Part shown: positions 1,326 through 49,004 of the stretch, one piece after another
Numbering within the stretch: position 1 is the stretch's first letter
Layout of the letters: every line of letters begins with the position of its first letter
Assembly (NCBI GenBank): GCA_012026655.1
Contig: JAAILG010000005.1
Span: 186,001-250,000 of the forward strand
Source: Hydrolagus affinis
Lineage: Eukaryota
Direction of reading: 5' to 3'
DNA length: 64,000 nt
The notes under the pieces: model-generated
What the model was told of the DNA's origin: nothing
Seen by the model: the letters and a program-made list of their open reading frames with translations, nothing else
The model's database searches: none
Made by a program: the position numbers and the translations under genes

Positions 1326-1355
1326 CTCCCAAGTGAAGTGAAGTGTGTTTAGTAC

Positions 1356-1707
1356 CTTCGTGATGGAAACCCCTCACGGTGTTGGCCCGACTCGCCGATA
1401 TCTCGGGATAATCGAAGTTGATGTCGTGGGTGATCTCGTCCCCAGACTGAAGCCTGTACAGATCCAGCATATACTGGGGAATGACGGCAGATTTGCTGGG
1501 CTGTGGGCGTCGTTGCAATCCGAACATGTTAAGTAAAGTGGCCTCGAATTCCCGTAGCAGTTCATGGTTTTGCGGAGAGCGACGTCCACCCGCCTGGTTT
1601 TGCTCAGCGAACTTCTTCCTTCCTTCCTCGGGTATTAGACTAGCATTACCTCCCAGTAAGACTTGGCATAATAAAATTACCATCAGCATTCGGTTACCAG
1701 GAATCAT
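1356..1707 (-). CDS. bmp4: BMP4 first coding exon (signal peptide and N-terminal prodomain)
   Basis: ATG at 1707 gives [35 protein letters not shown]...[36 protein letters not shown]...[13 protein letters not shown]. The MIPGNRML N-terminus is diagnostic for BMP4 rather than BMP2/BMP16. Acceptor ccgtAG at 1716-1715 (exon starts 1714); donor G|GTACT at 1355; 352 coding nt, phase 1. Confidence 0.98.
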
Positions 1708-1728
1708 GGTGTCTCTACGGAGCGCAAA

Positions 1729-1768
1729 AAACACACATACACACACACACAACACACACACACACACA
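1729..1768. repeat. (CA)n microsatellite, read as (TG)n just upstream of the coding-exon acceptor
   Basis: Directly visible. Confidence 0.9.
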
Positions 1769-1807
1769 AAAGGAGCGAGAATTAGAGTAATCTTCAATCA
1801 ACGCCCC

Positions 1808-1935
1808 AGAGAGAGCGAGGGAGAGAAAGAGAGAGAGAGAGAGAGAAAAAGAGAGTAAGCAAGAAAGAGAGCGAGAGAGAGAGAGAGAGTGAGTGAGAGG
1901 GAGAGAGAGCGCTACACAGAGAAAGAAAAGAAGAG
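1808..1935. repeat. (GA)n purine tract
   Basis: Directly visible. Confidence 0.9.
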
Positions 1936-2319
1936 TGAAAGAGGTATAATTACTTGGTCTGACTCGGTTACAGTTAAATAGCCCCATAATCAGTCAGATA
2001 GCACCATCATGTTACTCTTTGTGTTCCTGGGATCTCAGTAATTACCTCAGGCTGATTTTTCTTTCAGAAGTAAACAGTATAAAATATTTGCAATGAATTT
2101 CTCCCCCTCTTGGCTCAATCGTGTTATTTTTTTGAGGGGGTTGGTGAAGAGGGTGAAGAGTGTTCATACATTGCTCTACAAAACTACTGTCTAAACCCCG
2201 TTTAATTTCTTATCCCTCCCCACCTCCCCACCTCTCACCCTTCCCCCGTGGGCTCCTTTTTGATAAAGACTTGTCCGTAGTGTGTGGCTGGAAACACTTT
2301 GCTTCTTGACAGCCAAGGT

Positions 2320-2346
2320 ACAACAACAACAACAACAACAACAAAA
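2320..2346. repeat. (CAA)n microsatellite
   Basis: Directly visible. Confidence 0.9.
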
Positions 2347-2619
2347 CACAGACCCGAGGAAGCCACTCCACATTCAACAGGGTTTCAATGATAAAAACCA
2401 TGTCGGAAAAAAAAAGGATCGCGAGTTGGAACTCTCACTGGGAAAGAGACTGTCCAGCGCATCTTCTACACATCGCTATCTCTGTCTCTCTCTCTCTCTT
2501 TCTCTCTTTTTTTCTTTTAAAAAAAATCCTGCTCCAACAATTCAAAACAAAACCAGGAACAGAAAAAAAAATGAAATTCTCCCTCCCCCAACTTATTTAG
2601 GAAGAAAGGGGCTACTCAC

Positions 2620-2745
2620 TGACAGAAAACAAGGCAGGTGAAAACAGTCCATGATTCTTGACAGCCCGTACTTGGGGACAAATTCTTGAAAAGCTCAGGG
2701 ACTCTGGAGCTGTGGTCGGCTCGGCTGCTTATTATCGGATCCCTC
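2620..2745 (-). other. bmp4: bmp4 non-coding 5'UTR exon (orthologue of mammalian exon 2)
   Basis: Acceptor gttcttccAG at 2747-2746 and donor CA|GTGAGT at 2619-2614. The 3' half, GGCTGTCAAGAATCATGGACTGTTTTCACCTGCCTTGTTTTCTGTCA, closely matches the mammalian BMP4 5'UTR as I recall it. Confidence 0.88.
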
Positions 2746-2819: not shown

Positions 2820-3105
2820 CGTCAGCGGGCCCGCCTTTCACACCGGTCAATCATTGCTTCCCCTTCGCCGAGCGCCCGCCTTGTCTGAAATGTCCCACCA
2901 AAAGTGCAGCGGTGCAATTGGCGGCCCCCGGGCCGCCTTGTCAATCAGCCCGGCAAGCCTCACCTCCCCGCTGTCAATCAAACGATTAAGACCCCGCCCT
3001 CACTCCTCGACACGCCCACCGTGGGAGGAGGGGCCTAGCGCGTGGCCCCGCCCTCCGCCTGTCAATCAATGCGAGGCACTGAGCCCAAGGACTCGGGGCT
3101 GATGC
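2820..3105 (-). promoter_or_regulatory. CpG/GC-rich proximal promoter or enhancer of bmp4 with GC boxes and four TGATTGAC sites
   Basis: High CpG density; CCCCGCCC at ~2992 and ~3046; GTCAATCA cores within 2845-2853, 2938-2947, 2971-2980 and 3059-3068. Confidence 0.7.
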
Positions 3106-4640
3106 TGGAATAACTCATACACACAACACACACACACAAAAGTGCACCACCGCTCCTTACTTCACACTGCACACAGAGGCTTGGGAATCCAGCAGCATTC
3201 ATTGTAGAACTGCCTACATTAGGAACCCAGGCATTTATTCACTCACTCACTCAATCACTCACTCACTTCCACTCAGATGAGTCCACCAAGAGCAAAAGTC
3301 TCCTCGCCTTCTTCCTTCATCTCACAGATGCACAGAGGTTTTCTTATCTCTATCCCCCTCCCTCCACCCTCCACCCCCCAAACCCCCACCTCTCTCCCTC
3401 TCTCTTTTTCTCTTCCTCTCTCCTCGTCTCACCACATCCATCACAGGGTCACACAGACTATATAAACACGACACAACCTTCAAACCACCAGATGCCACAC
3501 GCACAAGCAGAATTGTGATACCAGCGGCGCACACTTGGATTTTGTTCCACCTCAGCCAACACTCAACGCCAGGTTCACATTTAGCAACAACACCTTAAAA
3601 AAATATTTTTCAAGGGAAAAATACTACAGTTTCTCTCATAGCTTTGGCGAACACTCACACACACACAAACACACACTTTTTTTTAAAAACAAATGGTGTT
3701 TTCTCAGTACTTTTTTAATCTCCGTCGCGAGTTTGCAAACTGCAGGCTATTCGCCCGCAAACTCTTCCAATCGCGCAGAGTGTGTAAAGGTTGTAGCATC
3801 ACACAACTAGACCTGTCACAATCCATAGTTTGACCCTCCCCCCCACACACACACACACACACAAAACACATGCCACAATGCTGTTGGAAGGGATGGATAC
3901 ACACCAAAGCCCAGCGGGGCAGAAGCATTTGTACAATTATCCAAACACACTCAACCATATGCAGTGCAAATGTGCAAACATTTTATTTAGTCGAATGCAT
4001 TCGGATATGACTTTAGAAATCAGCGCATTTTCACTTGCAGGTAAAATGCGTTAAAACGACACAATGGATGACTAACATGCCCCATTCTCACCTTTATAGT
4101 TATGCAAGGAATTGAATTGTTAGTTAATGGGCTAACGTGTCCTTTATAAGTTTCGGATTCCAAACTGTCTCCTGATTGTATATATATCCATATCCCTTTC
4201 TATCTAAGTCCGTGACACTACTGACACAGAATGGGAAACCAACTAAAAACTATTATTTTTAGTCTCTGTGCATAGTATCCGCGGTAAAACACACTGCCCT
4301 CGAGTCTTCCGATAAAATATATAGGGATAGGAGCTGGACTGCACAGAAAAACAGCAGCCGTTTTCACGAATAGCCCTCACACACACACACACACAAAGAT
4401 GCGTTTAAAAATGAAATAAGTTCTCAGCCCACTAGACAAAGCACCGCCTTGAATATCGTCCTTTTGCAGCACACGGGGGTCATGCTGGAGTAGTAAGAAT
4501 CAGACGTGCGGCCAAAATAACACATGCATTCATTTACACTGCAGAGAAGCAACAGTATATACTGTACGCAACAATCTCACTGTTTGCAAACGCACGGTGA
4601 CAAACACAGGGTCCGAACAGAAAGTTAGCGACGGACTTAC

Positions 4641-4850
4641 CATACTGCAGTGCCGAGGATTTATCGCATGTTTCACTGTAATCGTCTCTAATTAGTTTGC
4701 ACGATCGCCTCAGTTCGCCATCCTACTTGCTCTCGCTCTCTCTCTCTCTCTTAAGAGTCTATCGCCTTGAAACGCACAGGAGCTGCACGGGTGGCGCCTG
4801 GTGCACAAGAGCAAGCGCGCACAGAAATGCTCGGAAAAGGTCCATTTTAA
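4641..4850 (-). other. bmp4: Probable bmp4 first (non-coding) exon; 5' end approximate
   Basis: Strong donor ATG|GTAAGT at 4640-4635 inside a CpG-rich block, with a GA-rich leader and a TATA-like TTAAAA near 4845-4850 (minus). Confidence 0.5.
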
Positions 4851-5075
4851 GAAACATCGCCGAGGATCAATGGGAACCAACCCAACCTGGTCTGCGGGCC
4901 GCCCAGTCCCATGCAATTTGTTGGGAAGGACGCACGTCACTGGCATTTTAACACGAGTTCATAAAGCCTCGACTCTCTGATCTCTATAATATTTCACTTC
5001 CTTCCCGCTGAAGTGGGTGATAGTTAAGACATGTGCGCAGCAGTGGTCCTGCAAGTTGCCGGCGACTCGTGGTGT
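4780..5075 (-). promoter_or_regulatory. CpG-rich distal promoter region of bmp4
   Basis: CpG enrichment against a CpG-poor background; GGGCGG box at ~4899-4904; TGACGT (CRE/ATF-like) at ~4934-4939; TGGCGCC at 4792-4798. Confidence 0.5.
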
Positions 5076-47372: not shown

Positions 47373-49004
47373 ATCATAACACCATCATAACCTCTACCCC
47401 CATCAGTCCCCACCACCACCTCCACAACATGAACATTTCAACATGTAAACGTTACAGATTTCATCCTTATCATATTTTTCTCAAAAGTGTTTTAATGATA
47501 GCCTATTAAATCACTGGAAAGTATCCAGATCTTTAAATGACACCTAATATATCTAAAAAGCCTGCGTGAATGAGATAAAACCTCACAGTCTCTCGCTGTT
47601 TCACAGGGCACAAGTATTGGTCTATTTTCAGCATCACAATAGGGCAGCACCAAAATAGCAGCACTTGTGAATTATCAAAGCTTTATCATCCCTTAATTCA
47701 AAGAAAGTTTTCAAAATCTCACAGCAAAGTTTGAAACTCATTAGAAAGCAATACCTCTATCTCATATTTGACGAGAGAGACCCTGTCACTGGCTCAGGTC
47801 CAAATATCTTCGCATAGGTAATGAAGTCAAAATGATATCCAGTCCTTGATTATCATTCTGTAACACAGAAGGCTTCACAATGTTCCCCACTTCTTAAGAA
47901 ACAAGCAAATAAACAATCAAAGAAAATACATTTTCTTAATGAATTTCCAATGGACTTTATCTCATTAGCCTTGGCTCCCTTACAAATAACAGACATACAG
48001 CAAACTTTTTGTAAACTGCTTTGAAACCAAAATCCAAGTTCCCACACTTCAGAAAACAGTGTCCATTCCAGACACATGGTCACACTTTGTATGCAACAGT
48101 TAGATGATGCAGTTCGCTAATATGTTTGAGAAAGGTAGTTAATTAAGAGTGGATACCATATCTTGCATTTTCCAGCAGTCCACCTCATCAAAGGAAAACG
48201 AGTGCATATTGAAGGAAGCAAGCAATTAAGTTGCACAAATAGTGAGCTCATTGAACTGCAGCTGACTTTTATCATGTCAAAGACCATCTAAACACAGAAG
48301 CAATAAAATGATTGTTTCCATGGTTACCACTGAGAACTGACTGCAATAAAGATGGATTGCTTCCTAAATCAATGTTACTGATTCTATGTACCCAGAAACC
48401 ATTAAAAAATATTTTTTGACATAAATGTAGCATCTAAACTATGTTGATGTCTCTTTGATGAATGTAAAATATTATTACTGTATCAGAGGTTTAACATTGG
48501 GTATTGCTTCAGTTTGGAGATTAATGTTGTCCGTGCATTCTGTACGCGACTTGGGAGCCAGTTCTGAAGTAGTCTCTGGTGGCTGGGTGCTGCTGGGATC
48601 CAAGAACAAAGACTGGGAACTTACTGCGGTACACAGAACCACATGGGGACTGCTCAGGGCTCTTTTCGTCTGTTTTTAAATCTGTAGCTTCACTACCCAG
48701 GGGTTAAATGAGCTCACTGTTTTTGCAACTTTTGTTGTAACAGAACTGAATTCACGGCAATAACATGGAATCCACGCATGTGCAAGAGGTGTACCTACCC
48801 ACCCCAATCAGGAATTGTAACTTCATTTCTAGCCATGAACTCTTCTCCAGTCTCCAGGGAAATTCTGAGCAGGTCACCAGTGATGAAACTCCACTGCTGG
48901 CCTGTGTGGGCATAAACCTGCGTGGGCGCTCAACCCTACCGCAAGCAGAAAAATAAATACAACTAACATAGGTAGTGATCATGGAAGAATCATCCTGCCT
49001 CTCC

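Follow-up and report, generated by a model that had tools for sequence, protein, structure and literature searches.

BMP4 is a dose-sensitive developmental signal. In the window analysed here (64,000 nt of contig JAAILG010000005.1 from the chimaera Hydrolagus affinis), the leader of the bmp4 gene carries an ATG (uATG) that is predicted to open a short ORF running over the BMP4 start codon. Is this uATG an old control element of BMP4 output, and does the encoded peptide matter? The original prediction saw in it a translational throttle common to jawed vertebrates, possibly dependent on the peptide sequence. The reading preferred here, with a probability of roughly 65%, is that a jawed-vertebrate uATG located 40 nt before the BMP4 ATG opens an overlapping out-of-frame ORF (oORF) and likely lowers BMP4 output whatever its peptide.

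The bmp4 leader and the oORF

The bmp4 gene lies on the minus strand of the H. affinis window. Its first coding exon encodes a protein segment with 99% identity to Callorhinchus milii BMP4, but exon 2 differs between the two species. The oORF is built from the following features.

1354..1714, minus strand: BMP4 first coding exon (ATG 1707-1705, Met7 1689-1687, Met9 1683-1681)
1715..1716, minus strand: acceptor AG of the first coding exon
2620..2745, minus strand: non-coding exon 2, 126 nt
2614..2619, minus strand: distal (major) donor GTGAGT, which would yield the out-of-frame oORF
2618..2623, minus strand: proximal donor GTCAGT, 4 nt upstream of the major one, which would place the uATG in the BMP4 frame
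2620..2652, minus strand: oORF codons 1-11 at the 3′ end of the non-coding exon (uATG 2652-2650, with A at -3 and G at +4)
1694..1714, minus strand: oORF codons 12-17 and the TAA (1696-1694), overlapping the BMP4 start out of frame
2635..2637, minus strand: oORF codon 6, CTG in H. affinis, a possible back-up start in the same frame

Splicing from the distal donor gives an oORF of 17 aa, split into 33 + 21 nt and out of frame with BMP4, as had been proposed. The junction is a predicted one in H. affinis, resting on an identical split in human and on protein records; 24 records continue across this junction in the BMP4 frame, and of these P0250 comes from assembled sequencing contigs (18 contigs). 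In this spliced reading, the uAUG lies in the leader, is out of frame, and has its stop within the CDS, which places it in the oORF class. The stop occupies +12 to +14 (A of the BMP4 ATG as +1), i.e. 11-13 nt past that A, and the overlap is 14 nt. The stronger context claimed for the uATG was also recovered: it has A at -3 and G at +4, while the BMP4 ATG has A at both -3 and +4. The original prediction held that ribosomes leaving the oORF cannot simply re-initiate on BMP4. The stop does lie past the BMP4 ATG, but in-frame Met7 and Met9 follow it by 4 and 10 nt, and thus re-initiation may still occur. As a side observation, the next exon junction is 340 nt beyond the oORF stop, and termination at this stop could couple to nonsense-mediated decay.

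The existence of the human oORF is already known. The BMP4 uoORF c14riboseqorf37, with 17 aa and the 33 + 21 nt split, is catalogued as translated (Sandmann et al. 2023, PMC10032668), and the human peptide given in the original prediction agrees with this published row. The catalogue rows for BMP4 assign no function, state conservation only as a label and name no second donor. Two translated BMP4 uORFs are reported in keratinocytes, where BMP4 efficiency was higher on infection and, according to the authors, no causal test was made (PMC13432870). Translation of the uORFs and of the main ORF increased together in that study, which counts against repression. Out-of-frame overlapping uORFs usually repress, as discussed in PMC10275272. 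In the literature searched, no reporter, knockout or functional study of the BMP4 leader element was found; most subscription papers lay outside the search, and this absence is no proof. A usable BMP4 row was not found in the supplements of PMC4568590 (9 of 16 files), PMC8055015 or PMC11473369 (expression rows only). BMP4 is absent from the supplement of PMC12807861, which is uninformative as ATF4 is absent too, and from the main text of PMC11317171.

Conservation of the uATG, its frame and its surroundings

Is the uATG kept elsewhere? I fetched 359 protein records and kept the 304 whose N-terminus could be recognised as that of BMP4; 55 were set aside as BMP2, fragments, other isoforms or unrelated proteins. 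Clusters of up to 486 members were represented by at most 15 members, and all counts are among the records listed. Gene models that read exon 2 in other frames were used to expose its DNA. Two metagenome matches were also considered. One (L001) was dropped as a chance match of 66% GC, and the other (L002), a teleost-like contig, was used.

The junction is read in the BMP4 frame by 25 of the 304 listed records. In all but one of these 25, Trp occupies -13 and the residue at -15 is Glu or Gln; their codons fix T at +2, G at +3, G at +4 and a purine at -3. The fixed bases span chimaera, shark, rays, coelacanth, teleosts, frogs, a turtle and marsupials, in a set that was selected for an open frame and does not fix the A of the ATG. 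Three sources support the ATG directly: 17 records beginning at the uATG Met, the human row, and L002 (ATG with A at -3 and G at +4). L002 is identical to H. affinis at 28 of 33 nt in the exon part of the oORF vs 18 of 42 in the spacer before it. Residue 5 of BMP4 is N, S or K in 304 of 304 listed records, all compatible with the overlapping stop, which further requires BMP4 codon 4 to end in T, a base that proteins cannot show. Codon 6 of the oORF is ATG or CTG in the same frame: ATG in L002, and Met in human and in 9 of the 17 extended records. By these sequence comparisons, the start, the frame and the context are kept in sharks, the teleost contig, frogs, lizards, birds and mammals. Thus, the predicted conservation of uATG and frame across jawed vertebrates is borne out by the human row, the 17 Met-start records, 24 of the 25 junction records and L002. 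oORFs are present in 15% of human 5′ UTRs (PMC11057154), and finding one ATG in 126 nt of exon is nothing unusual. What goes beyond chance is that it holds the same place throughout jawed vertebrates.

Does the 17-aa peptide act through its sequence, by stalling or in trans? This is very unlikely. All 17 extended records share six residues (M-D-C, P7, C8 and L10), and the human ORF is labelled conserved, with a PhyloCSF of +6.95 in primates (PMC10032668). However, of the five differences between H. affinis and L002 over the 11 codons, four are replacements (P7 and C8 among them) and one is silent, the reverse of the excess of silent changes expected of a conserved-peptide uORF, albeit in only 11 codons. 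Positions 4, 5, 6 and 9 vary non-conservatively among tetrapods, and positions 7 and 8 change in teleosts. All 23 records compared agree in the wobble bases of codons 3, 6, 7 and 10, which is a DNA-level pattern. The catalogue row gives a PhyloCSF of -16.30 for mammals and 0 mass-spectrometry studies, and the same source describes PhyloCSF as weak for short sequences (PMC10032668). The suggested dependence on the peptide sequence was therefore not borne out, and by sequence comparison the constraint acts on nucleotides, start and frame. The conserved-peptide uORFs (CPuORFs; Takahashi et al. 2020, PMC7530721) are alike in being deeply conserved uORFs in regulatory genes, but the substitution pattern of the BMP4 oORF is not peptide-like.

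A nucleotide-level pattern, seen in both the 23-record and the L002 comparisons, is also what would be expected if selection held the exon end for the sake of splicing or of DNA-binding sites (TGACAG at 2620 and 2659), with the uORF as a tolerated passenger. The 33-nt exon end is conserved as DNA, and a constraint on splicing, structure or DNA binding could carry the ATG along; this limits the preferred reading, as do the overlap of only 14 nt and the Met7 and Met9 codons after the oORF stop. Besides the two TGACAG motifs, a cluster of other motifs lies nearby.

2846..3068, minus strand: four TGATTGAC motifs, 4 of the 5 in the whole window

The TGATTGAC motif is presumably of the PBX/MEIS type. 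From its position just 5′ of exon 2 and the accompanying GC-box-like sequence, the cluster is likely to be an internal bmp4 promoter. No TGATTGAC motif was found in L002. Donors shifted by 4 nt are the commonest minor type and tandem sites are mostly noise (PMC8055015), which would suit a splicing passenger. Yet the upstream TGACAG is missing from L002, where the ATG and its context are retained. Of the 23 records, 13 differ at -5 and 14 at -2, while -4, +2 to +5 and the purine at -3 stay fixed. The oORF frame is, moreover, catalogued as translated in human Ribo-seq (PMC10032668). A mere passenger is thus unlikely.

A structural constraint was considered as well. In the spliced RNA, the two start regions are predicted to form a stem.

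2649..2657, minus strand: 5′ arm of a predicted 9-bp stem pairing the uATG with the BMP4 ATG region (1709-1701)

If this hairpin were the selected feature, it would join both start regions and gate access to the BMP4 ATG. The stem has a pairing probability of 0.97-1.0 in 4 of 5 folded windows, and its 9-mer is found once in the 61 kb upstream. However, the folding energy is ordinary, with z-scores between -1.7 and +1.4, and the longest folded window no longer contains the stem. With the teleost bases two of the nine pairs fail to form, and one fails in coelacanth, a ray and a turtle; no compensating change was seen. Since CAUG is self-complementary, four pairs come free. The hairpin may be a modulator, but it is quite unlikely to be the main constraint.

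uORF1 and the ATF4-like layout

The original prediction described the oORF incompletely, leaving out a preceding uORF (uORF1) and the proximal donor. In human, c14riboseqorf38 has the last codon of exon 1 as its Met, takes up 51 nt of exon 2 and leaves 41 nt between its end and the uATG (PMC10032668). The corresponding features in H. affinis are as follows.

2695..2745, minus strand: exon-2 part of uORF1, 16 codons and TGA (2697-2695), ending 42 nt before the uATG
4635..4643, minus strand: candidate first-exon end ATG/GTAAGT, which would give the uORF1 start with A at -3 and G at +4 (join to exon 2 predicted)
48155..48159, minus strand: far candidate first-exon end, also ATG/GT, with a tblastn E of 0.006 to residues 1-11 of the C. 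milii model P0002
2755..2757, minus strand: ATG 12 nt 5′ of the exon-2 acceptor in the uORF1 frame, giving 20 aa with the same stop in transcripts that start inside the intron

The uORF1 frame closes after 51 nt in H. affinis exon 2. In L002 it closes after 48 nt, with TAA at codon 16 and a 42-nt spacer; that contig does not reveal where uORF1 starts. Thus, the uORF1 stop lies 41-42 nt 5′ of the uATG in three lineages (chimaera, teleost and human), as TGA or TAA. Each of the three possible 5′ ends in H. affinis (the donor at 4641, the far exon at 48157 and the read-through at 2757) gives an ATG in the uORF1 frame. Donors were scored with an approximate weight matrix and placed among 860 GT sites; on this matrix the donor at 4641 has 10.4 bits (rank 2 of 860), and the prior of an exon-end ATG is about 4%. 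An exon-end ATG would also fit the Trp found at the corresponding junction in records from catshark, Xenopus and several teleosts. The far candidate first exon (48157-48240, minus strand) lies about 45 kb from exon 2. The near one (4641-4960, minus strand) contains several further uORFs, including one of 3 aa (4721) and one of 2 aa (4669).

From the uORF1 stop, the distance is 42 nt to the oORF start and 82 nt to the BMP4 start, and both distances fall in the span that PMC10275272 considers for re-initiation. In the ATF4 and GCN4 leaders (PMC10275272), a first uORF precedes an out-of-frame one that runs over the main start, and the spacing is conserved. The BMP4 leader shares this layout, given the predicted exon-1 join in H. 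affinis. Unlike in ATF4 and GCN4, uORF1 has at least 17 aa, the spacer is about 42 nt and the overlap is 14 nt. Also unlike ATF4, BMP4 has no strong repression at rest and no clear induction by stress. On arsenite, BMP4 efficiency changed by a factor of 0.49 against a median 5.4-fold fall, with a Z of 2.67 (threshold, 4) from 42 and 18.5 reads (PMC4383229). On tunicamycin, ATF4 increased about 7-fold, whereas the BMP4 ratio was 0.61 before and 0.66 after (PMC4341466, with the column order deduced from ATF4). Thus, on low counts, the main ORF of BMP4 was not induced on eIF2-alpha phosphorylation. The raw-count ratio of ribosomes to mRNA is higher for BMP4 than for ATF4, about 3-fold in PMC4383229 and 20-fold in PMC4341466 (same column order), and therefore any repression of BMP4 would be moderate. 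In its stress response, BMP4 has an ATF4-like layout without ATF4-like behaviour; mild buffering or resistance is possible at most.

The second donor and BMP4 output

Among six donor/acceptor pairs tested, only the splice from the proximal donor puts the uATG in the BMP4 frame, adding 12 residues. This donor scores 1.2 bits (66th percentile) vs 5.5 bits (94th) for the distal one among the 860 GT sites, and the L002 donors score -1.4 vs 8.8 bits, all on the approximate matrix. Both GT sites are present and conserved in H. affinis and L002, and the Val codon is found in 5 placental records. The 12-aa extension is found in 17 of the 304 listed records (2 from chimaera, 5 from sharks, 5 from frogs, 2 from birds, 2 from lizards and 1 from possum), all of them predicted models of which none names assembled-read (Logan) sources. 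Among the listed records, none with the extension is from a teleost or a placental. The short form is also listed for several species that have the extended one, and the hydrophobic signal core is the same in the extended form. A gecko record (P0106) starts at a Met within the oORF region in the BMP4 frame, which suggests that an in-frame ATG has newly arisen in its lineage.

Among minor donors, an offset of 4 nt is the most frequent, and tandem sites are for the most part noise (Mironov et al. 2021, PMC8055015). The BMP4 pair resembles the GYNNGY tandem donors described there in having two GT donors 4 nt apart with the minor one weaker. In coding exons, however, the shift usually breaks the frame and feeds decay, while in BMP4 it would turn an inhibitory uATG into an in-frame start. 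The proximal-donor transcript, as predicted by the gene models, is likely minor and would encode an extended precursor.

Other uses of exon 2 were examined. A conserved long N-terminal extension through exon 2 in the BMP4 frame was rejected: the frame is open in H. affinis, but the exon length shifts among 126 nt in H. affinis, 125 nt in human, 123 nt in L002 and the 124 nt implied by C. milii models. A protein search with translated exon 2 gave no match. In five placental models (P0083, P0174, P0175, P0178 and P0180), a downstream acceptor skips the BMP4 ATG, and a hydrophobic N-terminus comes from the third frame of exon 2. A downstream acceptor AG also exists in H. affinis at 1661-1662, and the uATG is out of frame with it. 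The placental type of alternative signal-peptide isoform, read from the exon start, was rejected for H. affinis, where that frame has two stops near the exon start.

How would BMP4 be made behind the oORF? In the preferred reading of a peptide-independent oORF, the uATG would capture scanning ribosomes and so reduce initiation at BMP4. Three routes to BMP4 may exist. Some ribosomes would leak past the uATG. Others, having translated uORF1, may not be recharged at 42 nt but be recharged at 82 nt. On the likely minor proximal-donor transcript, a start at the uATG would give a precursor with 12 more residues, as the gene models suggest. A more elaborate possibility is an ancient two-layer control of dose, in which the timing of re-initiation between uORF1 and the oORF is joined with stress buffering, and a regulated choice between the two donors flips the uATG to a productive start. 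I regard it as less likely than not. If it were true, splicing would set the morphogen dose at an unchanged mRNA level.

While the human oORF is in print, its evolutionary depth, the paired uORF1, the frame-switching donor and the start-region hairpin were not found in the literature searched. A leader element dating to the jawed-vertebrate ancestor would be a precise handle on BMP4 protein output. In human, variants at positions counted as non-coding (the uATG, the uORF1 start and stop, and both donors) could alter BMP4 dose unnoticed. If the 4-nt donor shift from an inhibitory to a productive start is true, splice events of a kind mostly regarded as noise would acquire a function.
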